Source: a virus
Taxonomy: Duplodnaviria > Caudoviricetes
DNA length: 64,000 nucleotides
Virus record (IMG/VR): IMGVR_UViG_3300028886_000036
Location: 96,001-160,000 of that record
Direction: 5' to 3' (one strand)
This document shows, piece after piece, positions 2,136 through 23,166 of the stretch. The notes beneath the pieces were generated by a model. It worked only from the letters and a program-made list of their open reading frames with translations, did no database searches and had not been told where the DNA came from. The position numbers and the translations under genes were made by a program. Position 1 is the first letter of the stretch. Each line of letters starts with the position of its first letter.

Positions 2136-2178
2136 AAAAAGAAGGAGAGCTGCCCCGCAACAGCCCTCCTTCTTTTTT
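2136..2178. terminator. Bidirectional intrinsic terminator
   Basis: AAAAAGAAGGAG-AGCTG-loop-CAGCC-CTCCTTCTTTTT inverted repeat between convergent genes. Confidence 0.85.
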
Positions 2179-2512: not shown

Positions 2513-2553
2513 AGCAATACCCCCTAAAGGATTAAGATACTTTGATTATATAC

Positions 2554-3482: not shown

Positions 3483-3486
3483 ATAA

Positions 3487-3696: not shown

Positions 3697-3697
3697 A

Positions 3698-3931
3698 TTA
3701 ACTCCAATCCAATAACTCTTTTAGCACACTATGAAACCCAACAAACCTAGTAAATTTTTCATAATGTGTTATAGGGCACGTATCTGTAAGAATATATCCA
3801 ATAGCACTACAATGTCTACATGAAAGTAACTTACTAGACTTTTTATAGTCTAATGAACACCTAACAGTATCATTCTTCATACATCTATTTAGAGCTATAA
3901 CATGTACTAGTAATAATTTATCTTTAGTCAT
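3698..3931 (-). CDS. Small Cys-rich protein
   Basis: 77 aa, AGGAGG RBS, NRC...C...CRHC. Confidence 0.65.
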   Translation of the reverse strand: MTKDKLLLVHVIALNRCMKNDTVRCSLDYKKSSKLLSCRHCSAIGYILTDTCPITHYEKFTRFVGFHSVLKELLDWS

Positions 3932-3933
3932 AC

Positions 3934-4170
3934 TTACCTCCTTATTTTAATCGCTTTACTAACAACATCAAAGTTAAAGTATTCAGTAAATAACTTAAAG
4001 TTCTTTAATATAGGCATCTTATCTAAATTAGGGAACGCATATTGAATACTTTTACACCAACAACATAATTTTTTATCTTTGCCTGGAACGAACTCACATC
4101 TTTTACTTGATAGGCATTGATTGTACAAGATATTTTTAAAAGCTAGTTCTTCTGCTTTACTGGCCTTCAT
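3934..4170 (-). CDS. Small Cys-rich protein
   Basis: NQC-x5-C...CCWC; start moved to ATG 4170, which follows a GGAGG RBS. Confidence 0.65.
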   Translation of the reverse strand: MKASKAEELAFKNILYNQCLSSKRCEFVPGKDKKLCCWCKSIQYAFPNLDKMPILKNFKLFTEYFNFDVVSKAIKIRR

Positions 4171-4228
4171 ACTTAAATACCTCCAAAGACAGGATAGCAT
4201 TAATATAATATATTTATGAAAAACCAGT

Positions 4229-4260
4229 TGTAGTATAACATTATACTACATTATAGTCAA
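4229..4260 (-). promoter_or_regulatory. SigA-like promoter overlapped by a 10-bp palindrome
   Basis: Minus strand TTGACT-17 nt-TATACT with TGn; TGTAGTATAA-ca-TTATACTACA at 4229-4250. Confidence 0.6.
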
Positions 4261-4271
4261 CTTTTTTAGTC

Positions 4272-4290
4272 TGAACAAATATATAGAGAA
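4272..4290 (+). promoter_or_regulatory. Candidate phage late-promoter motif TGAACAAATAT
   Basis: Same 11-mer followed by AGAGA also at 7229 and 27160, each upstream of a structural gene. Confidence 0.55.
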
Positions 4291-4319
4291 CTCTTACAAA
4301 AGAAAGGGGAGAAGTTAAT

Positions 4320-6503: not shown

Positions 6504-6520
6504 AAGGAGAGATATAAAAT

Positions 6521-7171
6521 ATGATTATCTATAGATCAATTGAAGATACAACTAAAACCATTCGCATGAGTGATCTTAAGAAAATGTATCCTAATATTTC
6601 ATTTCCAAAAGAAGTTACTAACGAACAGTTAGAGTTTTTAAATATACCTTATACTGCTGAAGAGTATGTTCCTCCTACTCCTCCAGAGCCTACTCTTGAA
6701 CAGATTAAAGCTGAAAAAGCTAGAGCAATTCAGAATAGATCAAATATTCTTATGGAGCAGATTAGTGATGGTTATACTGATGGTGAAATTAAAACATTTG
6801 AACAGCAGAACTTGGGAGCTTTAGACATTCTTAATGGTACTTATAATAGCGAGAATGCTATGTTTGTTATAGCTCTTCTTAAAAATAGGCTTGCAAAAGC
6901 AGATGTTACTAACGAAGAGATTGTAGCTTTTGCTAACAAGATTAGAACTAATTATACTAATGCATCTGCATATACTTCATTAGTGGTTGGAACACAGCAG
7001 CATCTTGAACTTCTTGTTAGAGAAGCTGAAACTAAAGAAGAGGTGGAGGCTATTGATGCTTATTTTACCCCAGTTGTTCCTGATGTTCCAGCTGCAGAAC
7101 CAGAAGAAGATGAAGACGAAATAGTGGAAGAAACAGATCCAGAGGATACTAACAAAGGGCCTACTGAATAA
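6521..7171 (+). CDS. Putative tail fibre assembly chaperone
   Basis: YPNISFP...PPTPPEPTLEQIKAEK...AETKEEVEAI pattern; directly downstream of a fibre gene. Confidence 0.6.
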   Translation: MIIYRSIEDTTKTIRMSDLKKMYPNISFPKEVTNEQLEFLNIPYTAEEYVPPTPPEPTLEQIKAEKARAIQNRSNILMEQISDGYTDGEIKTFEQQNLGALDILNGTYNSENAMFVIALLKNRLAKADVTNEEIVAFANKIRTNYTNASAYTSLVVGTQQHLELLVREAETKEEVEAIDAYFTPVVPDVPAAEPEEDEDEIVEETDPEDTNKGPTE

Positions 7172-7181
7172 TAAACTATAC

Positions 7182-7225
7182 AAGAAGAACACTGTGCTAG
7201 AAATAGTATAGTGTTCTTCTTTTTT
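7182..7225 (+). terminator. Intrinsic terminator
   Basis: AAGAAGAACAC...GTGTTCTTCTT followed by a T tract. Confidence 0.75.
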
Positions 7226-7228
7226 ATT

Positions 7229-7245
7229 TGAACAAATATAGAGAA
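7229..7245 (+). promoter_or_regulatory. Candidate phage late-promoter motif
   Basis: TGAACAAATATAGAGAA immediately after the terminator. Confidence 0.55.
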
Positions 7246-7268
7246 TTTAAACAACAAAGAGGTGAATC

Positions 7269-7715
7269 TTGGTGCCCAGTATAAAAAAGACAGAAGAAGC
7301 ATTAGCTAAAGTAATTAAGGAATATATTATACCTAGCACTGCTGGCAATGCTGGTAAAGTATTATCTACATTAGATGGAACAACACTCTCGTGGGAGGGT
7401 GTTGATAATATTTTACCCACTCAATCTTCTGAAACTGAAAATAAGATATTAGTGAGCGATGGAGCTAATGTTTCTTGGAAGGCTATCAAAATGAAGCACT
7501 TTACTATTTATGCTGAAGCTAACCAAACAACCATCCCAACCAGTTCTTACAATATAAATGCATTTATGCAACTAGATGTTTTTAAGGATGGTATTAAGTT
7601 AATTGAGGGATCTGAAAATGATTACACCTATAACACTACTACTAAGGCAATTACATTAACTACACCATTACTTGATACAGACATTATAATGCTTGCATAT
7701 TTAGTTTTTGAATAA
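7269..7715 (+). CDS. Virion/fibre-associated protein
   Basis: GNAGKVL-x-DGT-x-SW repeat and VFKDGIKL...DYT domain shared with the fibre genes. Confidence 0.65.
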   Translation: MVPSIKKTEEALAKVIKEYIIPSTAGNAGKVLSTLDGTTLSWEGVDNILPTQSSETENKILVSDGANVSWKAIKMKHFTIYAEANQTTIPTSSYNINAFMQLDVFKDGIKLIEGSENDYTYNTTTKAITLTTPLLDTDIIMLAYLVFE

Positions 7716-7730
7716 AGGAGGCGATGATAT

Positions 7731-10700
7731 TTGTCAACAATTTTAAGACACACTTTAGATGACACTGCAATCACTAAAGAGTTTCATGAAAGAATATTAA
7801 CTATAGATGATACTTGTGATTCTGCTGAAGTTAATAAAATTCCTGTAGCTAATCAGCATGGATATCTTGATAGAAGCTGGTTACAAGATTATAACAGTTT
7901 TAAAATTAGAGATCTTCAAACTGTTGTTAATGATTATGTTACTGATTTAGACGATATTGAATATGTTCATTTAATAAATTTGGGTAGTAGAATAAGTGTT
8001 CAATTAACCTCACCAGATGAAATTGATGAGAGTTTACCATATAGAAAAGCTTTAATCTATAGATTTGTAGTTAAAAGTAATTCAGATGATTATACTATTA
8101 CTTGGACTTCTAATAAGCCTAATTATAATATAGTTTGGAATACTTATTCAGAGTCAGCACCAGAGTTAGATGCTAATGGAACTTACTTTGAGTTTATAAG
8201 TACTGATAATGGCTTAACTTGGTACGGAACCAGCTCTAATATGACTGACTATGATATTCACGATTATTATAACAAAACTACATCTGATGATAGATTTGTT
8301 CACTATACTGATACAGAATTATTAGTACCAGATATGACTAATATGGCTGGTAAATATCTTGTTAATAATGGATTAGAGTCATATTGGGCAGATTATAAAA
8401 AGTTAATATATGTTAGTTATCCAAGTACTGATGTAACATCAATAACAGTTCCGCAAGAATATATTCAAGATGCTACTATTACAGATATTTTTAGAAATGG
8501 AGTCTTATTAACTGAATCTGATGACTATGCTAAAAATAATTCTACTGGTGTAATAACATTTACAGATATAATACGGGCTGGTGAAAAGATTTCTGTATTT
8601 ACAGAGACTAGTGTTAAAGCACATTCTTATAGCGCATTTAACAATCTTGAATTAACTAATAGTACTGCAGATACTCCAGATACATCTGATAATAGTGACA
8701 AGATCGCCACTACAGCATATGTTAATAATAAACTAGCCGAATATAATTTAAGTAGTACTTTGGCATCTTTAGATTCTCCAGCGTTTAATGGAATACCTAC
8801 TGCTCCAACTGCTGCTGCGGGTACAAATACTAACCAAATTGCTACTACAGAGTTTGTAAATACTGCTATAACAAATAATACAACAACTACTACAACTGCT
8901 ATAAACAACGCTATTAATAATTTAAAAGATAATGCGCCTTCTGATTTAGATACTTTAGGGAAAATTGCTACTGCTATTGATAATGATCCAAATTTCTCAA
9001 TCAATATTCATAATGAATTAGATAACAAATTAAATACTAGCATTTCAGAAGTTGGAGAAGGTAATGGAGTAGCCAATGTTTCTGAAGAAAACGGAAGTTT
9101 AATTATCACTAAAGTTAATTTTAGTTTAGCTGATCATGATCATGGAGATGCATATTTAGCAGCTACTCCTAATGTAGGATCTGGTGTTACCCCAATTTAT
9201 ACTGATGAAAGCGGACAGCTCGTTGCTTCTTCATCTACAGTTGGAGATTCTCAAACTCCAGTATATTTACAAGATGGTGTTTTAACAGCTGTTAGTGCAA
9301 GTATAAGTTTAGCAAATCACAATCACGATGATCTTTATACACCATTATCTGAAAATGTTGGGTCTAATATAAAGCATATTTATTCCAATGAGAATGGTCA
9401 ACTTGTTGAATCAGATGCTACTGTTGGAGATAATTTAACTCCTGTATATCTTGATAATGGTGAATTAAAAGTTATTTCTGGGAGCGTAAGTTTATCAAAT
9501 CATGACCACGATAACAAATATGCGCCACTTTCATTAAATGCTGGTTCTAATATAAAACATATTTATTCTGACGAAGAAGGGCATTTCCTAGAATCAGATG
9601 CTACTGTTGGTGACGAATTAACCCCAGTATATTTAAATAATGGAGAAATAACTGCAATTTCAGGTAGTGTAAGTTTATCCAATCATAATCACGACGATAG
9701 GTATACTCCGTTAGCTTCAGATGTAGGATCTGGAATCAATCCAATCTATACTGATGAGTTTGGTGGATTAATTAGATCTACTGCTACTGTTGGAGATGAT
9801 GTGACTCCTGTTTATTTAAACAACGGAGAAATAACTGCTTTCCCAGTTAGTGTAAGCTTATCTACACACGATCATGATGATAGATATGTTGCAATTAGAA
9901 CCAATGTTGGTTCTAACACTACACCGGTTTTCTTAAATGGAAATGGAGTAATAACTGCATCCTCTGCTTCGATAGGAAATAATTCAGTTCCTGTATATAT
10001 GGATAGTGGAAGTATTACAGCTTTTACTGAAAGTATAGGTAATGAAACCACTCCTGTATTTATTGATTCAGGAATAATTACAGCCTTCTATGCTGATATA
10101 GGAGATAATGATACTCCAGTATATATTGATGATGGATCTATAGTTAGTACAGGTAAGCACTTTAGCGATTACCTCCCATTAACTGGTGGAGAAGTTACTG
10201 GTACCTTAACATTAACTAATGAAACCTTACCATTAGTAATAGGAGAATCTTTGGCTGAAGATCACCTTGAAATAACTTCATCATCTATTCAAGCAAAAAC
10301 CGGAGATGTTGAATCTGATATATCAATAAACCCCGATGGTGGGGCTGTTACATTTGGTAATAGTGAAACAGGGACTGTTGTTATAAATAATGGAACAATT
10401 CATGCTGACAACATAGTCGGTGAAATAACAGGAGTTATTGATAGAGCTAATAAAGACAGTAATGGGGACATTATTGTAAATACGTATGCTCATTTGGATT
10501 CACCCGATTTAGTTGGAACACCAACTGCACCTACTGCAGAATCTGGCGATAACTCTAATACAATAGCTACTACTGCTTATGTAGATAATGCTATTTCAGA
10601 ATTAATAGATTCATCGCCAAATGCATTAAATACTTTAAATGAGCTTGCTTCAGCATTAAATAACGATTCTAACTTTGCTACTAATGTTTTTAACGCTATT

Positions 10701-13055
10701 AATAATAAAGCAGATAAATTCTCGGACGATATAAGGTTAATAGATACAACGCCTAATACTGGTTTAGATGAAACATTTACCGGAGAACGTTATGATAATA
10801 ATATTAGAGGTTATGCTGTTGATTCAACTAATCTAATTGGTACTATAAGATTTAGATCTAATGCCAATGCTGATGGAGATATAGTTAAATTTATAAGAAT
10901 GTATGTTGGCGATAGTTCTATTTCGGTTAATTCTAGATATGATCACGAAACAGAAACTACAACATATTATACAGAAACTCAAACTCCTGATTTATCAGAT
11001 AATAGTACTAAAATAGCTACTACTGAATTTGTTAAATCAGTAACAAACAATATATTACCAGATCAAACTAACAATGCTAATAAATATCTTACTACTGATG
11101 GTACAACTGCTTCTTGGGCAAGTGTTGATGCTTTGCCGTCTCAATCTGGAAATGCAGGTAAGTATTTAGTTACTAACGGTACAACTGCTTCTTGGGAGGA
11201 TATTACTAATACTGAAGTTAAGATTAGTTCTATACATTATCCTTCAGAAGGAGAAACTACAATTACCTTAACTGGCTCAGATGTACTTCCAAGTGATGTC
11301 AGTAAGTATGCTATAGCAGTATATAGAGATGGCATATATCTTAATCCAACTATTGATTATAATTTTAATCATAATACTAATGTACTAACTTTTACTGTTC
11401 CGTTTGAAATAGACGAGATAGTAACTGTAATATTCTCTTACATTAGTTCTGATACACAGGCTTCGTTAGATCTTGATATAGATGAATATGAGGCCGGAGA
11501 TAATATTACTTTTGTCAATAATCCTACTACTGGTAAAGTTACAATTAATGCAGCAGCAAGCACTGCAACTGATTCAACTAAATTAGGTGGAGTTGAAGCA
11601 TCTAATTATGCATTATTAAGTTCACCTGAATTAACAGGAACACCTACGGCTCCAACTGCTGCTGCAGGCACTAGTACTACGCAGATAGCCACAACAGCAT
11701 TTGTTACTGGTGCTATTTCAGATTTAGTTAGTGGCGCTCCTTCCACATTAGACACTCTGAAAGAAATTGCTGATGTATTAAATGATAGTAGTACTGGTAT
11801 AGGTGCAATTAATACCGCATTAGAAGGCAAACTTAATACAAATATCACTACGACCGGATCTGGTAATGCTATTACTGCAATTACTGATTCTAATGGCAAT
11901 ATTACTGCAACTAAAGGAAGTACTTTTAGTTTAAGTACACATAATCATACAGGAACATACTTACCCTTAAATAACGGTATTTCTGAAGGAAATTATATAG
12001 CTTTTAAAGGTAGTCATGAAGAAGGAGTAGCTCCTAGTGCTACCATAGAAAAGTATATTACTTTTAGAGATGCCAATAGCCATAATATGGGGTCTTTGTA
12101 TTTTACTTATAATACAGATATGTCCTCATCAATGGCATTAAGAGCGTATAAAACTACTATAGCAAATGATGCCGGCAAGCAAGGACAGTTAGGAATAGGA
12201 TGGACTGCTGATAATAAAGTCTACACAGTAGCGCCTACTCCTGCAACTTCTGATAATAGCACACAGATAGCTACTACAGCGTTTGTTAAAGCTCAAGGAT
12301 ATACAACCGCTTCTGGACATAATCATGATAGTGCTTATACAGCTAAAGCAGAGTCAAAAGGTTCAGCCACGCAAGGCATTTATACTGATAGTAATGGAGC
12401 CATCCAAGCTATGACTTATTCTTTGAATAAGACAGTTCCATCTGATGCCATATTTACGGATACTAATACTAAAGTTAACGTTACTCTTGGAACTACTACT
12501 AAAGCTTATTTACTTGGTACTTCAACTACCCCTACAAGTACTGCTGCCGGGGTTACTGCAATTTCAGACACAGGAGTATATTTAGATACTACTGCTGGTA
12601 TGTTAACTGCTACAACATTTAAAGGAAATTTAAGTGGTAATTTAACTGCAACAGCACCTACAGCTCCTACAGCAACAACTACTACTAACAACACTCAGAT
12701 AGCTACAACTGCTTATGTTAATAATAGATTTGCTAATTCTACAGAAAATGTTAAAGCCTTAACTTCTGCTGCAACAATTGCTATTAACCCAACAGAGAGT
12801 AGCTTATTTACATTAACATTATCTAGGAATGCTACTATTAATATATCAACAATTTCTAATGGATACTATACTACTAATGGTGCAGTAATTACATTATTTA
12901 TGCCAGCACATAATTATACTATCTCGTGGGGATCTAGTATTTCTTGGGTAGAAGGTAGTGCACCTGATTTAAGTGAAGGATATAATATAATAACATTTGC
13001 TTCACCAAATGGCGGTACAACTTGGTATGGTAGTGCCCTTTCAGTTAGTTCATAA
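7731..13055 (+). CDS. Large tail fibre protein (1774 aa)
   Basis: Multiple PTAPT...IATTA(Y/F)V fibre repeats, LDTL-x-E/K-IA-x-AI/L motifs, HxH repeats. Confidence 0.8.
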   Translation: MSTILRHTLDDTAITKEFHERILTIDDTCDSAEVNKIPVANQHGYLDRSWLQDYNSFKIRDLQTVVNDYVTDLDDIEYVHLINLGSRISVQLTSPDEIDESLPYRKALIYRFVVKSNSDDYTITWTSNKPNYNIVWNTYSESAPELDANGTYFEFISTDNGLTWYGTSSNMTDYDIHDYYNKTTSDDRFVHYTDTELLVPDMTNMAGKYLVNNGLESYWADYKKLIYVSYPSTDVTSITVPQEYIQDATITDIFRNGVLLTESDDYAKNNSTGVITFTDIIRAGEKISVFTETSVKAHSYSAFNNLELTNSTADTPDTSDNSDKIATTAYVNNKLAEYNLSSTLASLDSPAFNGIPTAPTAAAGTNTNQIATTEFVNTAITNNTTTTTTAINNAINNLKDNAPSDLDTLGKIATAIDNDPNFSINIHNELDNKLNTSISEVGEGNGVANVSEENGSLIITKVNFSLADHDHGDAYLAATPNVGSGVTPIYTDESGQLVASSSTVGDSQTPVYLQDGVLTAVSASISLANHNHDDLYTPLSENVGSNIKHIYSNENGQLVESDATVGDNLTPVYLDNGELKVISGSVSLSNHDHDNKYAPLSLNAGSNIKHIYSDEEGHFLESDATVGDELTPVYLNNGEITAISGSVSLSNHNHDDRYTPLASDVGSGINPIYTDEFGGLIRSTATVGDDVTPVYLNNGEITAFPVSVSLSTHDHDDRYVAIRTNVGSNTTPVFLNGNGVITASSASIGNNSVPVYMDSGSITAFTESIGNETTPVFIDSGIITAFYADIGDNDTPVYIDDGSIVSTGKHFSDYLPLTGGEVTGTLTLTNETLPLVIGESLAEDHLEITSSSIQAKTGDVESDISINPDGGAVTFGNSETGTVVINNGTIHADNIVGEITGVIDRANKDSNGDIIVNTYAHLDSPDLVGTPTAPTAESGDNSNTIATTAYVDNAISELIDSSPNALNTLNELASALNNDSNFATNVFNAINNKADKFSDDIRLIDTTPNTGLDETFTGERYDNNIRGYAVDSTNLIGTIRFRSNANADGDIVKFIRMYVGDSSISVNSRYDHETETTTYYTETQTPDLSDNSTKIATTEFVKSVTNNILPDQTNNANKYLTTDGTTASWASVDALPSQSGNAGKYLVTNGTTASWEDITNTEVKISSIHYPSEGETTITLTGSDVLPSDVSKYAIAVYRDGIYLNPTIDYNFNHNTNVLTFTVPFEIDEIVTVIFSYISSDTQASLDLDIDEYEAGDNITFVNNPTTGKVTINAAASTATDSTKLGGVEASNYALLSSPELTGTPTAPTAAAGTSTTQIATTAFVTGAISDLVSGAPSTLDTLKEIADVLNDSSTGIGAINTALEGKLNTNITTTGSGNAITAITDSNGNITATKGSTFSLSTHNHTGTYLPLNNGISEGNYIAFKGSHEEGVAPSATIEKYITFRDANSHNMGSLYFTYNTDMSSSMALRAYKTTIANDAGKQGQLGIGWTADNKVYTVAPTPATSDNSTQIATTAFVKAQGYTTASGHNHDSAYTAKAESKGSATQGIYTDSNGAIQAMTYSLNKTVPSDAIFTDTNTKVNVTLGTTTKAYLLGTSTTPTSTAAGVTAISDTGVYLDTTAGMLTATTFKGNLSGNLTATAPTAPTATTTTNNTQIATTAYVNNRFANSTENVKALTSAATIAINPTESSLFTLTLSRNATINISTISNGYYTTNGAVITLFMPAHNYTISWGSSISWVEGSAPDLSEGYNIITFASPNGGTTWYGSALSVSS
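9123..9900 (+). repeat. 183-bp (61 aa) internal tandem repeat, about 4.3 copies
   Basis: SL-x-x-HxH starts at 9123, 9306, 9489, 9672 and 9855. Confidence 0.85.
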
Positions 13056-13069
13056 GGGAGGTGAATAGA

Positions 13070-15709
13070 TTGGCTGATACTAATAAAACTAGAGTAACTA
13101 TTGAAATGATTAGTCCGACTATTTTATCCAAGGCAGAAATTGAAAGTTTATATGCTCCATTAATTTCTCCGGCATTATCTGGAACGCCAACTATTTCTAC
13201 AACTCCTGATAAGACAGATAATAGTCATAAAATAGCAGATACTGCATATGTTAAAAATAATTTAGCCGATTACTTACCATTAACTGGTGGAACTATTTCT
13301 AACAGTGGTGCCGTTAACGGATTAACAATCTATAGTCCAAAGAATAATTATGCTTTAAGATTTTCAAATGATGTAGATAAAGGAACTGCTCCTAGTTCTA
13401 ATAAGATACATGGAATAGAATTCTATGGATCAGACACTTCTGCAACTAATAAAAGATTATCCAATATAGATGCTGGTGTAACTACAGAAAATGCAAGTTA
13501 CATTACAATGGCAGCATATGGATGTAAAACTTCTACAGATACTACTAGATCTGTTATTGGGGCGTATGTAGATGCTAATGATAATATATACACATCTGCT
13601 CCAACTCCAGATACCAATGATAATAGTACTAAGATTGCTACTACAGCGTATACTAGAAAATATGCTGCAGCAACCTATCTACCCTTAACTGGTGGTACTA
13701 TAACAGGAAATATAGTCTATAAAAATGCTAATATAACCAGAGGAACAGCTCCTTCAGCATTAACTTATCATGATTTTGCATTTAAAGATTCAAATAATGA
13801 ATATATTGGATTACTTCGTACTGAATATGATACCAATAAATCATCTTTAGTTAGTTTAAAAACTTTTAATACAACAGTATCTGGTACTAGTAATAATATT
13901 GCTAGATTAGGAATCGGATGTGATGCTTCTGGGAATGCTTATACAGTTGCGCCTACTCCGGCTACAAATGATAACTCTACTAAAATAGCTACTACAGCAT
14001 ATACTAGAAGTTATACAAGTGCTACTTATTTACCATTGACAGGCGGAAATGTTTCTGGCAATATAAATAGAACGCATACTTATACAATAGGAACTGCACC
14101 TAGCTCAACTCAAGAATCAAAATATAGTTTTTTAGATTCAACTGGGCTTAATATGGGGACTGTTTATTTTACTTATAATACTGATAAATCGTCATTAATA
14201 TCTTTAAGAGCCTATAATACTACTACTAAAAATAGTAATGGTAACATTGGAATGCTAGGTATTGGAAGTAACTCTTCAGGAGCGGTGTATACTATAGCCC
14301 CTACCCCAGCTACAGCAGATAATAGTACTAAAATTGCTACTACTGCATATGTTAAAAGTAACTTAAATAGTTATTTACCATTAAGTGGTGGAGTTTTAAC
14401 TGGAGCTCTTCAGTGTAAAACTACTTATACTAATGGATCTGGAACAACATATACCAGTCCATTAATTCAATTTAACTCTTGCAATGCTAGTTATGGTAAT
14501 AATGTTGCTTTTGGTGGGTTAAGTAATACTATTGTTGGATCTGGCGAATCAGTAAATAGCCAGTTAACAGCTTTAGCTGGAGTTGAGGCAGAACAACTAT
14601 ATTTAGTTTCAGATTCAGTAATTAATTTCAAGGTTAATTGTAATACTTGGGCTAATGCTAAAACAATTACACTCAATACTAACGGGGAATTATCAGGATT
14701 AACCAAAGTAACTTCAACTAGCTTTGTAGGAACTCTAACTGGAAATTGCTCAGGAACATCTGCAAATGTAACTGGTACTGTTGCAATAGCTCATGGTGGA
14801 ACTGGAGCCACTACTAGATTAGAAGCTGTTAAAGCGTTAACCAATGAAAATGTTGGGACTGCGGCTACTCATTTCCTGACAATCACTACATCTTGGGGCA
14901 AGGCAGGATATAGTACAGTTGCTAATGTCAAGTCTATTTTAGGATTAGGAAGTGCCGCTTATACAGCTAGTACAGCTTATGCAGCTAGTAATCATAATCA
15001 TGACTCTACTTATCTGAAATTATCTGGTGGAACTATGACAGGTCAGTTGGTAATTAATAAAAATACAGGTCTTTCTGCTACAGCAGCAAATGCGTGCGCT
15101 TTAGTTATTGGTGGTACTCAAACTGCAGCCCATATAGAGATAGATCCTAATGAGATACAGGCTAAATCTAATGGTACTACTGCTACTGCATTATATCTTA
15201 ACAATGGTGGTGGAACAGTATATTTATCTAACGGAACAGCTATTTCAGCAGCTAATGGTACATTTACAGCAACTAAAATAGTTGGAGCTTATTATGCTGA
15301 CTATGCCGAATGGTTCCCTCGTGGCGAGGAAACAGAACCCGGTGATGTTATTGTATTAGATTTAGATTCTGATAAAGAACAATATATTAAATCTAGTAAA
15401 GATAATAAAAAGGTTGTTGGTGTTCATTCTGATAATTATAGCCATATAATAGGTGGTGAGCAAGCTCCTGAAGGAATTGATCACAAAGAATATAATGAGC
15501 CAAAGTATATTCCAGTAGCTTTATGTGGTAGAATTGAAACTAAATTTATAGGCGCAGCTAAAAAGGGAGATTATGTTGTTCCTTCTGATATACCTGGCGT
15601 AGCTAGAAGTTATAAAGAAACGGATAATCCTTTATCTGTATTTGGTATGCTGGTTGAAGAAGATAATTTAGTTGATACAATAAGAAGGTTAAAGGTTAAA
15701 TTAAAATAA
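13070..15709 (+). CDS. Tail fibre protein with C-terminal peptidase_G2-like intramolecular chaperone
   Basis: YLPLTGG and DNSTKIATTAY repeats; ADYAEWF...VVGVHSD...PVALCGR; TTG 13070 follows a GGGAGGTGA RBS. Confidence 0.8.
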   Translation: MADTNKTRVTIEMISPTILSKAEIESLYAPLISPALSGTPTISTTPDKTDNSHKIADTAYVKNNLADYLPLTGGTISNSGAVNGLTIYSPKNNYALRFSNDVDKGTAPSSNKIHGIEFYGSDTSATNKRLSNIDAGVTTENASYITMAAYGCKTSTDTTRSVIGAYVDANDNIYTSAPTPDTNDNSTKIATTAYTRKYAAATYLPLTGGTITGNIVYKNANITRGTAPSALTYHDFAFKDSNNEYIGLLRTEYDTNKSSLVSLKTFNTTVSGTSNNIARLGIGCDASGNAYTVAPTPATNDNSTKIATTAYTRSYTSATYLPLTGGNVSGNINRTHTYTIGTAPSSTQESKYSFLDSTGLNMGTVYFTYNTDKSSLISLRAYNTTTKNSNGNIGMLGIGSNSSGAVYTIAPTPATADNSTKIATTAYVKSNLNSYLPLSGGVLTGALQCKTTYTNGSGTTYTSPLIQFNSCNASYGNNVAFGGLSNTIVGSGESVNSQLTALAGVEAEQLYLVSDSVINFKVNCNTWANAKTITLNTNGELSGLTKVTSTSFVGTLTGNCSGTSANVTGTVAIAHGGTGATTRLEAVKALTNENVGTAATHFLTITTSWGKAGYSTVANVKSILGLGSAAYTASTAYAASNHNHDSTYLKLSGGTMTGQLVINKNTGLSATAANACALVIGGTQTAAHIEIDPNEIQAKSNGTTATALYLNNGGGTVYLSNGTAISAANGTFTATKIVGAYYADYAEWFPRGEETEPGDVIVLDLDSDKEQYIKSSKDNKKVVGVHSDNYSHIIGGEQAPEGIDHKEYNEPKYIPVALCGRIETKFIGAAKKGDYVVPSDIPGVARSYKETDNPLSVFGMLVEEDNLVDTIRRLKVKLK

Positions 15710-15732: not shown

Positions 15733-16848
15733 TTGAAAACTTATGAAAATGAAAGACATTTTTTAAGAAGAAATATAGACACTATTTTTTTAATGATGGG
15801 AAATGAATGCAATCTTAATTGTAGATATTGCTTACAGCATCCTTTAGTGGAACATCCGATTTCTCACGAAATAAATCCAGATATATACTATTTTATTGAG
15901 CAAGTTTGTAGGGAGAATATTCATCTTCCTTTAGATCTTCGTTTTTGGGGAGGAGAACCTTTAGTTTTTCTCCCCAATATTAAAAATGTAGTATATGAAA
16001 TAGAACAAAGAGATTTGCCAGTATCATTTAGTACAATGAGTAATGGTAAATTAGTAACTGAAGAATTAATAGAATATTTTAAAGAACATAACTTTAACTT
16101 TGCTATTAGTTGGGATGGAAGAAATAGTATAAAGACTAGAGGATATAATGCTTTTGAAGATAAGAAAGATATATTATTTCAGATGCCACATCTTTGTATA
16201 AGTGCTGTATTAAGTGCTTATGCATATCCTAAACAAATCTGTGAAGATTTTCAACAGCTAGATAATGAATATATGGAAAAAACTGGATACCACATTGGAA
16301 TGAATGTAGATGACATATTTAATACCGGAGATCTACCAGAAGATCTTTTAAATTTTGATTATGACAAGATAATATCTGAAATGATTGAGCTAACTAGCAT
16401 TTTTATAGAAGATAGACTCAACAATAATATGCCACCAGAACATTATGCTATAAACCATTATATTGGAAATATCTATGATTCTGTTAAGCATTTTTATAGT
16501 GCTGGAGACGATGCTACCTGGAATAATATCTGGTGTTGCTGCGGTAATGGTTATACAACTTTAAATCTTGGTATAGATGGAACATTATATCCATGTCATA
16601 ATACTAGTCATAGTGTAGGAAATATTAAAGATTCATATTTTCGTTATCTTAAAAATGTAATTAAGTATGATACTACATTTAGGCACCATTATGATAATAC
16701 GTGTAACGATTGCCCAGCAATAAGTTATTGTCATGGCGGATGTAAGTTAGTGTCTGATGAGAATAGGAATAAAACATATTGTAATTTAAAAAAAGCTATA
16801 GTTCTGCCTGTAATTCAGATGCTTACTGAATTAGGAACAGAACTATAA
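15733..16848 (+). CDS. Radical SAM/SPASM-domain enzyme (peptide-maturase-like)
   Basis: CNLNCRYC, WGGEP, SWDG; SPASM CG-x8-DG-x-LYPC...CNDC-x5-C-HGG-C...C. Confidence 0.92.
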   Translation: MKTYENERHFLRRNIDTIFLMMGNECNLNCRYCLQHPLVEHPISHEINPDIYYFIEQVCRENIHLPLDLRFWGGEPLVFLPNIKNVVYEIEQRDLPVSFSTMSNGKLVTEELIEYFKEHNFNFAISWDGRNSIKTRGYNAFEDKKDILFQMPHLCISAVLSAYAYPKQICEDFQQLDNEYMEKTGYHIGMNVDDIFNTGDLPEDLLNFDYDKIISEMIELTSIFIEDRLNNNMPPEHYAINHYIGNIYDSVKHFYSAGDDATWNNIWCCCGNGYTTLNLGIDGTLYPCHNTSHSVGNIKDSYFRYLKNVIKYDTTFRHHYDNTCNDCPAISYCHGGCKLVSDENRNKTYCNLKKAIVLPVIQMLTELGTEL

Positions 16849-16866: not shown

Positions 16867-17271
16867 ATGGCTAAAAATGGTACTATAAATAAAACAACTT
16901 TTACCGATCAATCTAATATACAAGGCGGAACTTTAATATTAGCTAAAGCTATTCATGTTGCTGAATTGCGAACTGCTATTGGTAAACTTGAGCAATACTC
17001 TGTAAATGTAGATAATTGTGGTCAATGTGCTTGTCAGAATAAGTGTACTTGTCAATCCGATAAAGAATGTAGATGTGAATCATGTCAAGACGCATGCACA
17101 GAATGTACTTGTCAATCTGATAAGCAGTGTAGATGTGAATCATGCCAGGATGCGTGTATTGAATGTTCTTGTGAACAAGTTCGTTCTAATTCGTGTTCTA
17201 ATTGTGGATATAATAGTTGCGATTCTTGCTCAGGTGGAGACGATTGGGGAAGTAGCGGAGGTTATGAATAA
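16867..17271 (+). CDS. Cys-repeat precursor-like protein A (putative rSAM target)
   Basis: Cys-free 50-aa N-terminus, then 21 Cys; AAGGGGGAG RBS. Confidence 0.75.
   Translation: MAKNGTINKTTFTDQSNIQGGTLILAKAIHVAELRTAIGKLEQYSVNVDNCGQCACQNKCTCQSDKECRCESCQDACTECTCQSDKQCRCESCQDACIECSCEQVRSNSCSNCGYNSCDSCSGGDDWGSSGGYE
17044..17163 (+). repeat. 60-bp (20 aa) tandem repeat, 2 copies
   Basis: CTCQSDK(E/Q)CRCESCQDAC(T/I)E twice, with mostly synonymous DNA differences. Confidence 0.9.
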
Positions 17272-17712
17272 ATGGCTACTTGGACAGATTCTACATTAAG
17301 TAATAAAATAAAAATTAAAGCTGTTCATGTCAATGAAGTTAAAAACGCAATTCAATCTCTTATAGATAAAGCTAAATTGTCATCTACAGTATCAATAGGC
17401 ACTATAAACACTAGTAAAAAAGTACTTGAATCTAATATTTCAAAGTTACAAAAATCTATAAATGCATTAGAAACCAACTTTTCTGGAAATTGTGCAAAAA
17501 CTCAATGTACTTCAAAATGTGAATCTTGTCAAGATTCGTGTACACAATGTAAGTGCCAATCTGATAAAGAATGTAAGTGCCAATCTTGTCAGGATACTTG
17601 TAAACAGTGTATATGCCAAACGGACAAATGTCAAAAATGCCAATCGCAATGTCAATGTTATGATGGATGCTATGACGGTTGCAGTGGCGGAGATGATTAT
17701 GGTTCTGAATAG
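17272..17712 (+). CDS. Cys-repeat precursor-like protein B (putative rSAM target)
   Basis: 19 Cys in the C-terminal half; shares KA(I/V)HV-x-E and CSGGDD(W/Y)GS with protein A. Confidence 0.75.
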   Translation: MATWTDSTLSNKIKIKAVHVNEVKNAIQSLIDKAKLSSTVSIGTINTSKKVLESNISKLQKSINALETNFSGNCAKTQCTSKCESCQDSCTQCKCQSDKECKCQSCQDTCKQCICQTDKCQKCQSQCQCYDGCYDGCSGGDDYGSE

Positions 17713-17738
17713 CTAGTATAGAGAGAAGGTCGGTTATT

Positions 17739-18308
17739 ATAATATCTTTAAAACCCTGGTATTCTAAACTACATTTAAAAGTATTAGATACCATAAATAA
17801 AGACATTTATAAGTTTATATATCACATTTCATTAAGAAACGACTATCTTGGTCTTGTTATGAAATGGGATCAATCATGTATTGAAATAATAAAAGAAACA
17901 TTGTTATTTAAAGATATATTTTATAATATAGAGATTTCTAGTATTGAGGATTATGAAAGTATTAATCTTTCATGTAAAGGAAATACACACAAGTTTCATT
18001 ATTTTTGTGAAGTATCTAAATATAATGATCTAAAAAGTATCCCATGTTTAGGGGTATATATGAGCAATGGAAAGTTTCCTTATAATGTTAGGGAATCCAT
18101 AATAAATAAGGGTGAAAATCTTAAAAGAGCTATGTTTAAGTTTAGTTCTATAGAAGATTATATTAGGTTAAATGATTATACTTTATTTTTAGATACTGAA
18201 GGAAATGTATATGACAATGTTCTTTTTATAAACAATGTATGCAATATTTTCAATGACAACATTGATGTAAAGTTGTTTGACTACATAAGAAAGAGAGTGA
18301 GCGTATGA
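17739..18308 (+). CDS. Degenerate radical-SAM-like accessory protein (no CxxxCxxC); probable ATA/ATT start
   Basis: Frame open from 17709. The extension gives INKDIYKFI (compare INPDIYYFI in rSAM1); TLFLDTEGNVY resembles the SPASM entry. The ORF track starts at 17859. Confidence 0.55.
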   Translation: MISLKPWYSKLHLKVLDTINKDIYKFIYHISLRNDYLGLVMKWDQSCIEIIKETLLFKDIFYNIEISSIEDYESINLSCKGNTHKFHYFCEVSKYNDLKSIPCLGVYMSNGKFPYNVRESIINKGENLKRAMFKFSSIEDYIRLNDYTLFLDTEGNVYDNVLFINNVCNIFNDNIDVKLFDYIRKRVSV

Positions 18309-19096
18309 TTAAAGTTATTAATAACACTTCATTAGTGTATGATATTACAAGAATACCACACATTAATCAGTATAGAGACATAACATTATATGCGTCAGAA
18401 ACAGAGGATCAGTTATATATAAAAGTTGCTTTTATATCTGGTACAGAAGCTTTTGAAAGCTATATCTTGGAGAAGACTTTTGATAAGAATGCTATTAAAG
18501 GTACATTATGTGATATAACTTTTATTAGATCTACATCATATTCGCCTTACAATATTTTTGTAATTGGTAGGAAGTTTAATCGTGTAGATGCTCCTTTAAG
18601 AAATCCAACTAATGAAAGAATATTTTCTTTTGCAACATTATATATAGCTAATAACGGCGATGTCTACATTATACCTAGGTGGAGACTTACACACACCAGT
18701 AATAAGTTTGATGGATGTGATTATTCTGAAGTTGCATTTAATGGTAGAACTCCACAAGAAATATTATTTGAGTTAGTACCAGAAACGGTAGATATCACTA
18801 AAGCGTGGTATATCAAAAAGGAAACTCTTGGTGACTCTATTGATACTAGAACATCTGTGACCTATTTAGAGAACCAAGTAGATGTTTTGTATAAGATTAT
18901 TGAAAAGCTTATAGCTGCTACAAATATAGATGTATCAGAATATGCTGACATTCTCGATGCTGTTGATAAAACTTCAGTAATGAATATTAACAGTATTGAA
19001 AAGATTGTAAATAAGATTAATAGAGATAAGAAATATATTAGAACTAAACAGAAAGAGTATCACGATAAATTAAAAGCAGCTGGGTTTGATGCCTAG
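18305..19096 (+). CDS. Hypothetical protein in the rSAM cassette with helical/coiled-coil C-terminus
   Basis: 263 aa, overlaps both neighbours. Confidence 0.75.
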   Translation: MIKVINNTSLVYDITRIPHINQYRDITLYASETEDQLYIKVAFISGTEAFESYILEKTFDKNAIKGTLCDITFIRSTSYSPYNIFVIGRKFNRVDAPLRNPTNERIFSFATLYIANNGDVYIIPRWRLTHTSNKFDGCDYSEVAFNGRTPQEILFELVPETVDITKAWYIKKETLGDSIDTRTSVTYLENQVDVLYKIIEKLIAATNIDVSEYADILDAVDKTSVMNINSIEKIVNKINRDKKYIRTKQKEYHDKLKAAGFDA

Positions 19097-20009
19097 TTTA
19101 AAATTAAGAGTTGGAAGTAAGTGTAATCAGAACTGTAAGTTTTGTCATTCACATAAAGGGGATGAATATGTATTCAATCCTAAAATCATCCCCTTTATTA
19201 AATATAATGATTTTGATAATGTAACTTATGGCGGTGGGGAACCATTAGTATATTGGGATATTATTAAACTGATTGTTGAGTCTATACCAGACATTCATTA
19301 CACTATAGTTACAAACGGATCATTATTTAATGAGGAAATGTTAGAGTATTGTACTAAATACAACATTAGAATATACATTTCATTGACAGATTACACAAAT
19401 ATTTCCGACTATACCTATACATTAATAGGTAAAGTGCCACAACTTGGGACCGCAAAACTATATGATGGAACTAAAACTTTTCAAGAACTGGATAAATTAG
19501 TTGAAAACTTTAAGTTAAAAACTGGTAGAGATATAAATAGCTATTGGTATAACTTAATGCACACTACATGCAACAATCCTAGTATGGTTTACACTGATGA
19601 GATGAAAAAGCATTATATAGATAATATGAAAGAAAGGCTTAAGGATACATTATATTCTAAAAAAATAGGTTATCCTACTAAATGGTCATGCATGTCACAA
19701 GATCTTCACACATTTTTAGTAGGGAATAGAATTCAAGGATGCAATACATATAATCATACAACAATTAGTTTAGATGGCAGGTTTATGCCGTGCTCATATA
19801 TAGCAGAATATGGTGCTTCGATAGAAGATTTATATAATTATGATATTCCAAAGTTAAAATCTGAAAAGTGCTATGATTGTAATTTAGTATATAAGTGTCA
19901 TTCTTGTTATAAAACTTTAAACAATGATCAATGTGAAATTTATAATGAATTGTATAGTTATGTTGAGAAAATTTGTAACGAATACAATTTAGATATAGAT
20001 AAATTATAA
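19086..20009 (+). CDS. Second radical SAM enzyme with SPASM-like C-terminus
   Basis: CNQNCKFC, GGGEP, VTNG; GC...SLDGRFMPC...CYDC-x5-CHSC...C (start 19086 or ATG 19089). Confidence 0.9.
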   Translation: MMPSLKLRVGSKCNQNCKFCHSHKGDEYVFNPKIIPFIKYNDFDNVTYGGGEPLVYWDIIKLIVESIPDIHYTIVTNGSLFNEEMLEYCTKYNIRIYISLTDYTNISDYTYTLIGKVPQLGTAKLYDGTKTFQELDKLVENFKLKTGRDINSYWYNLMHTTCNNPSMVYTDEMKKHYIDNMKERLKDTLYSKKIGYPTKWSCMSQDLHTFLVGNRIQGCNTYNHTTISLDGRFMPCSYIAEYGASIEDLYNYDIPKLKSEKCYDCNLVYKCHSCYKTLNNDQCEIYNELYSYVEKICNEYNLDIDKL

Positions 20010-20025: not shown

Positions 20026-23000
20026 TTGCCCGAAAAATTAAAAGAAAACTTATATAACTATCCAAACAACCCTAATCCAATTAACCCAGATTATCCTTTA
20101 GAAGCTATTTTAACTGAAGCACATATGCAAAATACTATTACTTCAGATATGGTATCTATAGTAGCTGCAAAAGGAAAAATCCCTATTGGAAATCCAGAGG
20201 ATAGTTATAAACTTGATAGTAGTTGGTTGGGAATAGATCCTGATGCATCTTATGCAGTAGACGCTACTACCACTAGAAAAGGTATTATAGAAATAGCTAC
20301 AGAAGCTGAAGCTAAAACTGGTACAGACACAGAAAGGGCAGTTACTCCAGCGGGTGTTAAAGCTAGTATTTTACAAAACACTCCTAAAGCTACTACAGCA
20401 CAATCTGGCGTAGTTACATTAACTAATCTTATAGATAATTCTCAAGATAAAGCTGTTACACCATATGCTATACAAAACTATTTAAGCAGTAGTAATTTTT
20501 CAAAAGCTTCATATACTGGATATGGGATAACCAAATTTGCTAGCACTACAAATGTTGCAAAAGTATTAACTGATTCAGCTACTAAACCAATTAATACACT
20601 TAAAAATGATACTAACTATAAAGAACAAGCTGTAGATCCATATTCATTGTATAATTATGTTTCTAATAATACAATGTATTTTAATGTTAACAAACAGTCT
20701 GTTGGTGGTATTATTTTTAGAGATTTAAGTGAAGACGATACAGCTACTAGAGTAACTGCTACTGAAAGAGCTAGACTATACGTTAATAAAGATAATGGCA
20801 ACACTTATTTAAAAGTTAATGGCAGAACTGCTACACTTTTAGATAATGCAGGTAATAGCGCTTTTCCTGTAAGCATTACAGCAAGTACGTCTGTAATTAC
20901 TCCATTAATTAAACAGTCAAACGGTAATGCTCCTAAATTAGGAACTAAAAAAATTGGAGATACAAATAAGCCTATTTATATTGCTAGCGATGGAACTATA
21001 TCAGAATGTAATAATATAGATACTGTTAATAACGCTACTAACGCTACTAATGCCACTAATGCTGATAAGGCTATTAAAGACGGTAACGGTAATATAATTA
21101 CAAGTACTTATCTTCCATTAGCTGGTGGAACTATGACTGGGCCAATTAAGGCAAAAACAACTTTTACGGATGCTAACGGGGCAGAAAAAAGCCATACGTA
21201 TAGTATTATAGATTTTAAAACAAGTGGGACAACAGCTGGAAATAATGTTGCATTTGGTGGTAACAGTAACGCCATTTTTGGCTCTGGTGAGTCTTTTATA
21301 AATCAATTAAATGCATTAGACGGAGTTGAAGCTGAAGATCTTTATTTGGTGTCTGATGGAAATATCCATGTAAAGATGAGCGAAAACAACTTTGCTAATT
21401 GCAGAGAAATATTTATAGATAAAAAATATGGTCAGATAACTACACCTAGCAATATTTTAACTAAATCTCCTGCTGTAGTTAGAGGCACTGCTCCAAGCTC
21501 TAATATAGAATTTTCTACATTTGATTTTAGAGATTGTGGAACAAGTTCCGGTAATCATAGAATAGGATTAGTTTCCACAGTTTATAAAACAGATAAATCC
21601 TCTTATACTGGTATGTATGCGTACGATACCACAGTTGCTACAGGTAATTCACCAGCAGATTGGTGGTTAGGTATTGGTTGCGATAAAAATGCTAAAGTTT
21701 ATACTCACGCTCCAACACCAGCAGCTACATCAAATGATACTAATATAGCCACTACAGCATTTGTTAAAACAGCTATATCTAATAATAACTCTAGCTATTT
21801 GCCATTGGCTGGAGGAACTATGACTGGACAGATTACCTCAAGTGTATCTTCCGCTTATTGGGTTGATATAGCGGCAAAGAGTTCAATAATTGCTTCAAAT
21901 AATACTTCTGGGGCTTATGGATGGTTAAGTGGTTATACAAAGAGTTATAGAGTTATGCTTGGTGCGTATCCCGGAAACGACGAGATGATACAGCTTTATT
22001 CATATACTAAAGCAAGAGCATCTGCAGGCGGAAAAACTAATAATACACCAACTAGCTATTTTACTTGGAATGCTGCAACTGGAGAAATCAGAAATTCTGG
22101 AGGAGCAACACTTTCAAGTACATTAAACATTGCACCAGGCGCAGCTAATAATTACTCCGAAGGAATTAGAATACAAAAAGCTACTAATAATTGGGCAACT
22201 ATAGTATTAGGATGTAAAGCAGGGACTGTTAACGGCAATCCAGCAACTAATGGCGGATGGTTTATTGGTAATAATACTTCTAATCAACTTGTTATAAATA
22301 ATACAGATTCTAGCACTGGAAAAGCTTCTATTTGGATAGATACTGATAAAAAAGTAACTATGACTGGAGCATGTAATGTAGTAGGCACTATAACTCAAAA
22401 TGGAACTGCAGTGTCTCTAAACGGTCATACACATTCTTATGCCGCTTCAAATCATAGTCACAGTGATTATTTACCATTAGCTGGCGGAACTATGACTGGT
22501 AATATTACTAGAAAAAACACATCAGTCACTAGAGGAACAGCTCCATCTTCTAATCAATATATGTCAACATATTATCAAGATTCAAAGGGGAATGCCATAG
22601 GATGCTTTGAAAGTGGATACTATAAAGATAAATCCGCTAAAACAGGTATGTATACTTATAATACTACAGTAGCATCTGGAGGAAGCGTAGGAAGTGTAGG
22701 AGTAGGTTGTGATAAAAATGGTAATGTTTATACATGGGCACCTACACCAGCATCTGGAGATAATAGCACAAAAATAGCCACAACAGCATTTGTTAAATCC
22801 GCTTTAGCTTCTGTAAAAGATGAAGTAGTTTCTAAAAAAACTGGATACTTTTATATAGGTGATGTAATTATACAGTATGGATATTATAATGGTCAAAAAG
22901 GTGAAGGAGACCAATATAATAAAGATAAAAACGAAATTCAACTTTTAGTTCCCATAAAGACAGTATATAGCTTAATGGCTACTAGTAGATCTAGAATTAA

Positions 23001-23166
23001 TAGATGGGATAAGGGTGGATGCATGATTACTAACAATGAGCTTAGATACGATAAAAATGGAAAGTTAGTTGCTTTTAAAATTAGTTGTGGAGATTATCAA
23101 GGATCTAGGGCTGGTGATAATACCGATTGGGGAGCTTATTGGATGGTAATAGGAACTAATTCATAG
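20026..23166 (+). CDS. Tail fibre protein
   Basis: ATTTRKGIIEIAT...AVTP fibre repeat, YLPLAGGT repeats, C-terminal VIIQYG...YWMVIG tip domain. Confidence 0.8.
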   Translation: MPEKLKENLYNYPNNPNPINPDYPLEAILTEAHMQNTITSDMVSIVAAKGKIPIGNPEDSYKLDSSWLGIDPDASYAVDATTTRKGIIEIATEAEAKTGTDTERAVTPAGVKASILQNTPKATTAQSGVVTLTNLIDNSQDKAVTPYAIQNYLSSSNFSKASYTGYGITKFASTTNVAKVLTDSATKPINTLKNDTNYKEQAVDPYSLYNYVSNNTMYFNVNKQSVGGIIFRDLSEDDTATRVTATERARLYVNKDNGNTYLKVNGRTATLLDNAGNSAFPVSITASTSVITPLIKQSNGNAPKLGTKKIGDTNKPIYIASDGTISECNNIDTVNNATNATNATNADKAIKDGNGNIITSTYLPLAGGTMTGPIKAKTTFTDANGAEKSHTYSIIDFKTSGTTAGNNVAFGGNSNAIFGSGESFINQLNALDGVEAEDLYLVSDGNIHVKMSENNFANCREIFIDKKYGQITTPSNILTKSPAVVRGTAPSSNIEFSTFDFRDCGTSSGNHRIGLVSTVYKTDKSSYTGMYAYDTTVATGNSPADWWLGIGCDKNAKVYTHAPTPAATSNDTNIATTAFVKTAISNNNSSYLPLAGGTMTGQITSSVSSAYWVDIAAKSSIIASNNTSGAYGWLSGYTKSYRVMLGAYPGNDEMIQLYSYTKARASAGGKTNNTPTSYFTWNAATGEIRNSGGATLSSTLNIAPGAANNYSEGIRIQKATNNWATIVLGCKAGTVNGNPATNGGWFIGNNTSNQLVINNTDSSTGKASIWIDTDKKVTMTGACNVVGTITQNGTAVSLNGHTHSYAASNHSHSDYLPLAGGTMTGNITRKNTSVTRGTAPSSNQYMSTYYQDSKGNAIGCFESGYYKDKSAKTGMYTYNTTVASGGSVGSVGVGCDKNGNVYTWAPTPASGDNSTKIATTAFVKSALASVKDEVVSKKTGYFYIGDVIIQYGYYNGQKGEGDQYNKDKNEIQLLVPIKTVYSLMATSRSRINRWDKGGCMITNNELRYDKNGKLVAFKISCGDYQGSRAGDNTDWGAYWMVIGTNS

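Follow-up and report, generated by a model that had tools for sequence, protein, structure and literature searches.

Known systems and the cassette under study

To our knowledge, thioether formation by radical S-adenosylmethionine (SAM) enzymes has been described for small secreted bacterial peptides and for one enzyme subunit (QhpC), and is not known from virus particles. Here we describe a phage gene cassette in which two radical SAM/SPASM enzymes (rSAM1 and rSAM2) accompany a pair of Cys-rich proteins, termed A and B. The cassette lies within a 64,000-nucleotide (nt) stretch of DNA (the window), which corresponds to bases 96001-160000 of the 275,466-bp IMG/VR virus record IMGVR_UViG_3300028886_000036 (G+C 32%), a giant gut phage. 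The reading that we favour, tentatively and at a little less than even confidence, is that A and B form a tail-associated pair whose (Cys-Gln-x)n tails would be cross-linked by the two enzymes. The four genes are as follows (unit numbers refer to a triple-repeat domain described below):

15733-16848, plus strand: rSAM1, a radical SAM enzyme with a SPASM domain (Pfam Radical_SAM, Fer4_12 and SPASM)
16867-17271, plus strand: protein A, 134 amino acids (aa), 21 Cys, with a strong Shine-Dalgarno sequence upstream; residues 1-50 form loop-helix unit 1 and residues 51-134 a core rich in Cys and Gln, in which a 20-aa repeat occurs twice and which has the tail C-S-G-G-D-D-W
17272-17712, plus strand: protein B, 146 aa, 19 Cys; residues 1-73 form units 2 and 3 (the second degenerate) and residues 74-146 a Cys/Gln-rich core with the same acidic tail
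19086-20009, plus strand: rSAM2, a shorter second radical SAM/SPASM enzyme (Pfam Radical_SAM, E 1.3e-12)

In the PapB/PapA (freyrasin) system, a Cys donor is joined to an Asp or Glu acceptor located at positions i+1 to i+7 (PMC12373016). As in our cassette, a radical SAM/SPASM enzyme is combined with a Cys-rich repeat; PapB is the best NCBIfam match of rSAM1, and its Cys-Asp/Glu spacing fits most of the Cys in the A and B proteins of the window, as well as a family-wide terminal C-x3-D motif. The cassette differs in that rSAM1 has no RiPP recognition element (RRE; RiPP, a peptide made on the ribosome and modified after translation), in the presence of two enzymes and in its location within a phage tail module. 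Moreover, A and B are a pair of 134-146 aa with a folded N-terminal unit, and their main repeat, Cys-Gln-x, is acid-free in most lineages.

The nearest solved structure to rSAM1 by sequence belongs to the CteB/CteA system (SCIFF; 5WGG/5WHY), but the N-terminal 95 residues of CteB, which constitute its RRE, have no counterpart in rSAM1. SCIFF peptides are approximately 45 aa long and contain six Cys, whereas A is 134 aa long with 21 Cys and B 146 aa long with 19 Cys, and both fall outside TIGR03973. The SCIFF core likewise alternates Cys with Gln, Thr and Ser.

The CXXX-repeat system (targets TIGR04114/04117, maturase TIGR04115, PF27846) shares with the cassette a helical N-terminus, a Cys-repeat tail and an adjoining radical SAM/SPASM gene; however, its Cys period is 4 rather than 3, and it has one chain where the cassette has two. 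Neither A nor B gave a match to these families, and TIGR04115 was outside the top 25 matches of rSAM1.

In the QhpC/QhpD system, a radical SAM/SPASM enzyme places several Cys-Asp/Glu thioethers in a structural subunit that is retained, and QhpD is the second-best NCBIfam match of rSAM1. The score (70 bits) is nevertheless far from the cut-off of 453, and QhpC belongs to a periplasmic enzyme, its leader being cleaved and the cofactor being a quinone.

Finally, metallothioneins resemble A and B in Cys density and in the spacings C-x-C and C-x2-C, but lack the dedicated radical SAM enzymes, the conserved Gln after Cys and the replacement of Cys by Asn seen in some members of the A/B family; no metallothionein match was found for A or B in Pfam. 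The cassette fails the score cut-offs of the PapB, SCIFF, QhpD and CXXX systems, and differs from them in its period, two chains, missing RRE and setting. A literature search found no publication describing it.

Proteins A and B are paralogs under purifying selection

The genes of A, B and the two enzymes are located in a one-strand run of closely packed genes, between two tail fibre genes, and the ATG of B abuts the stop codon of A. A preliminary description, made from the letters of the window, had presented A and B as paralogs with Cys-free N-termini and cores of 21 and 19 Cys. This was borne out: the proteins are 39% identical across 120 columns (BLASTP, E 2e-19), the Cys counts are correct, and no Cys precedes residue 51 of A or residue 74 of B, which leaves both N-termini Cys-free. 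Likewise present in both proteins are the N-terminal motif K-A-(I/V)-H-V-x-E-(L/V)-(R/K)-x-A-I and, at the C-terminus, C-S-G-G-D-D-(W/Y)-G-S.

The 20-aa repeat reported earlier occurs twice in A (60-79 and 80-99) and, intact, once in B (93-112), which additionally has one degenerate copy. At the DNA level, this is a tandem repeat with a period of 60 nt (2.2 copies, 82% matches; TRF). The two copies in A do differ mostly at synonymous sites, as had been noted (7 of the 9 differing codons); comparison of each of them with the B copy gave synonymous/non-synonymous differences of 7/6 and 5/7.

Ratios of non-synonymous to synonymous polymorphism (pN/pS), calculated from 12 or 13 distinct siphovirus-type orthologs, were 0.14 for the N-terminus and 0.11 for the core of A, and 0.10 and 0.04 for the respective parts of B. 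Both halves of each protein are therefore constrained at the protein level. This purifying selection, together with the occurrence of relatives in dozens of contigs, places the A/B pair beyond chance. The homologs of A (P0002-P0011) and of B (P0167-P0173) are all unnamed metagenome proteins, and scans of Pfam, PHROGs and NCBIfam (the last at E 0.01) returned no family match for A or B. The ESM Atlas/ESMFold model of A was too poor for use, with a predicted local distance difference test score (pLDDT) of 0.50.

Distribution and variants of the cassette

A scan of IMG/VR yielded 43 cassette loci, which were mapped by tblastn. The gene for rSAM1 was directly upstream of A, and B was directly downstream of A, in all loci reaching that far (42/42 in both cases); A and B invariably occurred together, with A before B. 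A second radical SAM gene followed A/B in 36 of the 43 loci, and other paralogs were present in two more.

The order fibre, rSAM-SPASM, A, B was conserved in 42 IMG/VR loci, including those of jumbo phages and of siphovirus prophages of Negativicutes, and the same six-gene order was found in contigs of 293 kb and 94 kb. In a 33.5-kb siphovirus-like contig, the cassette is placed after the genes for the tape-measure protein, Dit and a 499-aa fibre, and before an amidase gene. The arrangement rSAM, A, B is also maintained at L069 and L070, two divergent loci where up to three extra radical SAM genes or a ThiF-like gene are present as well.

The prophage form was detected in genomes of Acidaminococcus, Succiniclasticum, Dialister, Megasphaera and Selenomonadaceae. 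All of these are Negativicutes, which are strict anaerobes, and such hosts are therefore suitable for oxygen-sensitive enzymes. Cultured hosts of the prophage are Acidaminococcus fermentans (WCA-389-WT-5B), A. massiliensis (Marseille-P2828) and Megasphaera sueciensis (TMW 2.2488), which makes direct testing possible.

Several variants of the cassette were observed: (i) seven radical SAM paralogs around a single A+B pair in L044 (a 95.6-kb IMG/VR contig, 980-12028), and four in L070, (ii) the ThiF-like gene of L069, at 4071-4736, (iii) loci L042, L049 and L050, which have no second radical SAM gene and in which genes resembling those of a PP-loop ATPase, an aminotransferase and a transporter were recognized by eye after B, and (iv) a free-standing 136-aa gene with a weak Hint_2 match after B in siphovirus-type cassettes (L009, 8749-9159).

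The radical SAM enzymes

The radical SAM motif CX3CX2C was found at residue 26 of rSAM1 and residue 13 of rSAM2. Both proteins have the full set of SPASM Cys motifs (CX9-15GX4C and CX2CX5CX3C), which places them in the radical SAM/SPASM superfamily; for rSAM1, the SPASM scores were 26.2 in Pfam (cut-off 21.5) and 43.8 for TIGR04085 (cut-off 27). The two enzymes are homologous across 295 columns (hhalign, 99.8%).

The top NCBIfam matches of rSAM1 were PapB (93.9 bits), followed by QhpD, CcpM and the SCIFF maturase, all of which form Cys thioethers. Against the PapB model NF047865 (cut-off 340), rSAM1 and rSAM2 scored 93.9 and 29, and their orthologs in the siphovirus-type locus L009 scored 112 and 60 bits. 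The match of rSAM1 to the SCIFF maturase model TIGR03974 started only from profile position 94 and reached 62.6 bits (cut-off 425). The nearest solved chain, CteB (5WGG, E 5.6e-13), was aligned over its radical SAM and SPASM parts; because this alignment begins only at CteB residue 96, the RRE is missing in rSAM1.

It had been suggested earlier that the cores could carry many thioethers, and the kinship of the enzymes makes this the best-supported chemistry. The suggestion that aromatic triplets serve as cyclophane substrates of the second enzyme was not supported: the aromatic residues are absent from most family members, and cyclophane enzymes were weak matches for rSAM2.

The Cys-rich cores and the acidic tail

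The commonest distance between successive Cys across the family was 3 (374 of 799 cases), and 56% of all Cys were directly followed by Gln, so the repeat unit can be written as (Cys-Gln-x)n. An Asp or Glu at i+1 to i+7, the spacing used by PapB, was found for 17 of the 21 Cys in A and for 14 of the 19 in B; in siphovirus-type relatives this was the case for only 3-7 of 17-21 Cys. The ending D-x-CSGGDD-aromatic-GS, described earlier as conserved, is present in A and B, but its aromatic residue is not conserved across the family, where only C-x-C-(G/S)-D-D remains. This remnant contains a C-x3-D motif, which 41 out of 44 distinct A/B sequences have within their last 16 residues; of the three that lack it, two are truncated by contig ends.

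A chemistry other than the formation of side-chain thioethers could act on A and B, such as linkage to alpha-carbons (sactionine links), oxidation of Cys to formylglycine, epimerisation, methylation, or activation of the C-terminus for covalent attachment to a partner. The weak matches of the enzymes to anSME, sactipeptide and other maturases would agree with this, as would Gln, and not an acid, after 56% of Cys. Some cassettes also contain the Hint-like, ThiF-like and apparently PP-loop-like genes mentioned above, whose relatives elsewhere act on C-termini or carboxylates. We nevertheless consider this explanation unlikely, given that the anSME target motif C/S-x-P/A-x-R is missing from the A and B sequences, and that the Hint, ThiF and PP-loop genes occur in particular lineages only and are not found in the window.

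The Cys density of the cores (25-35%) and the spacings C-x-C and C-x2-C raise another possibility, namely that A and B bind metals or are rich in disulfides, in the manner of a metallothionein, and are left unmodified, the enzymes being directed at something else, such as the fibre or a small molecule. The failure of both enzymes to attain any family cut-off fits this explanation, and a metal-dependent fold would suit the low confidence of the ESMFold model of A. However, the order rSAM1, A, B is invariant in very different phages; the number of radical SAM genes varies from one to seven, always around A+B; the closest relatives of the enzymes all act on Cys-rich peptides; and Asn in place of Cys within some repeats would break a metal cluster. 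An unmodified metal binder, which the preliminary description had also considered, is thus improbable.

Within the repeat, Gln is a more constant residue than Cys, and no explanation offered here accounts for its constancy. In one A-like protein, P0017 (282 aa, from a 1-kb metagenome contig), a Hint/intein-like domain (Hom_end_hint, E 1.4e-5) is located just before the acidic tail. Apparent fusions of the A and B frames, seen in some loci, were rejected as such: an alternative frame is open over the core of A, and there is no frameshift.

The N-terminal unit belongs to a triple-repeat domain

A profile of the N-terminal part (52 columns) matched 2528 proteins in a library of 1.84 billion. The matches included prophage proteins encoded at the tail-fibre position. 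Most matching proteins contain exactly three tandem units of about 38 residues each, placed at the extreme C- or N-terminus of larger proteins; small Cys-rich A-like proteins were also listed. The unit has the pattern (F/W)-T-D, a loop, and then K-A-x-H-x-x-E-L-R-x-A, which A and B both match. Many carriers of the triple repeat have FG-GAP, Calx-beta, fn3, beta-helix or InlB B-repeat domains, or signal peptides.

In two siphovirus-like prophages the last tail gene, which precedes that of a BhlA holin, has the triple repeat as its C-terminal part (P0020 and P0029; L071, 8001-10121, and L072, 89-2083). A model of the three-unit domain, built from an alignment of 100 such domains (alignment A3), consists of three helices linked by long loops (pLDDT 92.8, predicted template modelling score 0.85). 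Clusters of the ESM Atlas that contain Ig or fn3 domains, most of them viral, include the same shape (template modelling score, TM, 0.82-0.89). The triple repeat is an unnamed domain that folds with confidence and has thousands of members, located terminally in fibre-position proteins of phages and in bacterial surface proteins; A and B would be a natural split version of it.

No Pfam family covers the unit and no PDB name exists for the domain; sequence searches of the PDB returned nothing usable, whether the query profile came from the N-terminal unit, from the triple repeat or from the C-terminus of the fibre, and Foldseek gave no match of the triple-repeat model in the PDB or BFVD at E <=0.001. 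In VIA-align (wide), the top scores were obtained with a designed helical filament (Z 8.9) and the BARA domain (Z 7.3), which is within the chance range for helical bundles, and therefore no fold is named.

Each unit contains one invariant His, giving three in total, and one invariant or nearly invariant Arg. The triple-repeat domain also occurs in many bacterial surface-type proteins. The possibility that the helix motif is common to the fibres of this phage itself was rejected, since A and B were its only occurrences when the six frames of the 275-kb genome were searched by regular expression.

When the N-terminal parts were aligned with the three-unit domain, A fell on unit 1 (hhalign 97.7%, E 1.3e-12) and B on units 2 and 3 (97.9%, E 5.4e-13), which argues for a heterodimer rather than a homotrimer. 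Together with the constant co-occurrence of the two proteins and their abutting genes, this suggests that A and B are a split domain that would be rebuilt by a 1:1 heterodimer. In complex prediction, A(1-52) with B(1-75) gave an interface score (ipSAE) of 0.44, the best control giving 0.00, with contact agreement between runs of at least 88% and partner pLDDT of at least 67. The mark applied to this score was reached by 58 of 80 solved complexes and by 2 of 110 mismatched pairs; at values of at most 0.60, it was reached by only 7 of the 80 solved complexes and by both of these mismatched pairs. The predicted complex thus lends weak support to the pairing.

For the shared helix, the preliminary description had proposed either a leader recognized by the maturase or an element of virion attachment or trimerisation. 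The second of these is favoured by the triple-repeat domain, its confident fold and its tail-fibre position in prophages, with a heterodimer indicated rather than a homotrimer; a leader role is made less likely by the missing RRE of rSAM1 and by an N-terminus whose conservation does not exceed that of the core. In its behaviour, the N-terminal part is closer to a module that stays folded in place, as in proteins at the fibre position, than to a leader that is discarded.

These findings bear on the explanation that A and B are classical RiPP precursors, with an N-terminal leader that is cleaved and a cross-linked core that is freed at lysis as a bacteriocin or signal, the cassette being a phage moron. 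Their leader-plus-core layout, next to radical SAM/SPASM enzymes nearest to ranthipeptide makers, is what such a system would show, and the strongly conserved junction preceding the first Cys (N-V-D-N-C-G in A, F-S-x-N-C in B) could serve for cleavage or recognition. The gap between tail and lysis genes is moreover a common location of accessory genes in siphoviruses. On the other hand, when the cassette genes of L003, L006 and L009 were scanned with Pfam, none was flagged as a peptidase or an exporter, and rSAM1 lacks an RRE domain. What would be the leader here is one unit of a domain that mature secreted and fibre proteins retain; the core, atypically for RiPPs, is as conserved as the N-terminus; and the jumbo phage cassette lies within a same-strand, tightly packed run of fibre genes. 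A freed peptide product therefore appears rather improbable.

A proposed tail-associated, cross-linked A·B pair

We return to the reading favoured at the outset, that of a tail-associated A·B pair with cross-linked tails. According to it, A would supply unit 1 and B units 2 and 3 of a single three-helix module, assembled 1:1, as the profile alignment and gene arrangement suggest, and the two Cys/Gln-rich tails would project from this module side by side. The enzymes, judging from their kinship, may abstract hydrogen from a side-chain or backbone carbon and join that carbon to a Cys sulfur, with many non-reducible thioether bridges as the outcome. Since only the terminal C-x3-D offers an acid throughout the family, the (Cys-Gln-x)n stretch would need a different acceptor or a different chemistry, for which the second enzyme may be responsible.

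That A and B are the substrates of the enzymes is suggested by the invariant rSAM1-A-B order, the kinship with thioether formers, the SPASM motifs and the PapB-like spacing. A structural, non-diffusible role is suggested by the fibre and tail setting, the lack of a peptidase or exporter, the constrained core and the triple repeat that ends a tail gene. From this context, the product could be a stiff part for host contact, proof against proteases and reductants in the anoxic gut, and not a diffusible peptide.

Several observations weigh against this proposal. The score of rSAM1 is below every maturase family cut-off (94 bits for PapB, against 340), and the type of reaction is therefore a guess. 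Siphovirus-type cores are nearly devoid of Asp and Glu outside the tail. In L070 (1296-2112) and P0050, many repeat Cys are replaced by Asn (Asn-Gln-x for Cys-Gln-x), so not every Cys is needed, and a purely thioether role leaves the conserved Gln unexplained. The score of the A/B complex is weak and comes from shallow alignments, and the assignment of A to unit 1 is soft because the units resemble one another.

The genomic context also provides arguments of this kind. No other open reading frame of the 275-kb genome has the helix motif; no fusion of a core to a fibre was found in a search for longer forms of A, which is weak evidence; and the middle genes of the cassette vary by lineage. Protein searches of a 50,697-record collection of isolated phages revealed none that encodes A or a siphovirus-type relative, and a DNA search of this collection with the cassette found nothing.

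A bolder version of the proposal, which we regard as doubtful, is that A·B is a split fibre tip whose tails become thioether-laddered rods at the tail fibres, and that in some lineages it is ligated through an activated C-terminus by the Hint- or ThiF-like proteins. If the pair is indeed a cross-linked component of the tail, this would represent a new kind of virion maturation, in which radical chemistry of the RiPP type builds a virion part in phages of strictly anaerobic gut bacteria, and it would reveal a way in which phages toughen the parts that touch the host, in a gut that is reducing and rich in proteases.

Genes neighbouring A and B

The remaining features of the cassette and its borders are as follows:

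13061-15709, plus strand: tail fibre gene (PHROG tail-fibre matches), directly upstream of the cassette
15257-15706, plus strand: conserved C-terminal domain of this fibre (last 150 aa)
17715-18308, plus strand: open frame of a cassette gene without assigned family (ATG at 17859, 149 aa), conserved in the jumbo-type cassettes of L003 and L006
18305-19096, plus strand: cassette gene of 263 aa, conserved in L003, L006 and L069, without Pfam or PHROG match
20026-23166, plus strand: next tail fibre gene (PHROG tail collar fibre and tail fibre), which closes the cassette downstream

The gene starting at 17859 gave no Pfam, PHROG or NCBIfam family. Its homologs have 188-189 aa and an ATG start approximately 36 codons further upstream; in the window the upstream frame is kept open and similar, with no ATG, GTG or TTG at the start position of the homologs. 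The gene therefore either uses an unusual start codon or is shortened. Its identification as a dead radical SAM paralog was not supported (hhalign with rSAM1, E 0.058 over 26 columns).

The 263-aa protein gave a poor ESM Atlas model (pLDDT 0.42), and its gene is not alike to the 274-aa gene of siphovirus-type cassettes. More generally, BLAST and hhalign showed that the middle genes of the jumbo and siphovirus types are not alike.

The C-terminal 150 aa of the upstream fibre are 41% identical to the fibre of L009 (E 7e-36). This domain was encoded directly 5' of rSAM1 in nearly all cassette loci, an extra gene being placed between them in L006-L008. Its AlphaFold2 model (pLDDT 88) resembles the C-terminal fragment of phi29 gp12 (3GQH; TM 0.66, E 2.7e-4), and the fold is of the type of the gp12 C-terminal autochaperone fragment (3GQH/3SUC).

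At locus L068 of a human-gut phage (MT835573.1, 7350-11267), the fibre shares this C-terminal domain, and after it come a CXXX-repeat protein of 193 aa with a TIGR04114 match, a pair of small genes and a radical SAM maturase of the TIGR04115 type (300.6 bits). This is an analogous cassette, of a family known only by hidden Markov models; the N-terminus of its CXXX protein gave no match to the triple-repeat profile (E 0.11). The same fibre domain also ends gp359 of phage PA5oct, a virion protein identified by mass spectrometry, with no radical SAM gene adjoining, and constitutes a free-standing 205-aa gene in L070 (5883-6500).

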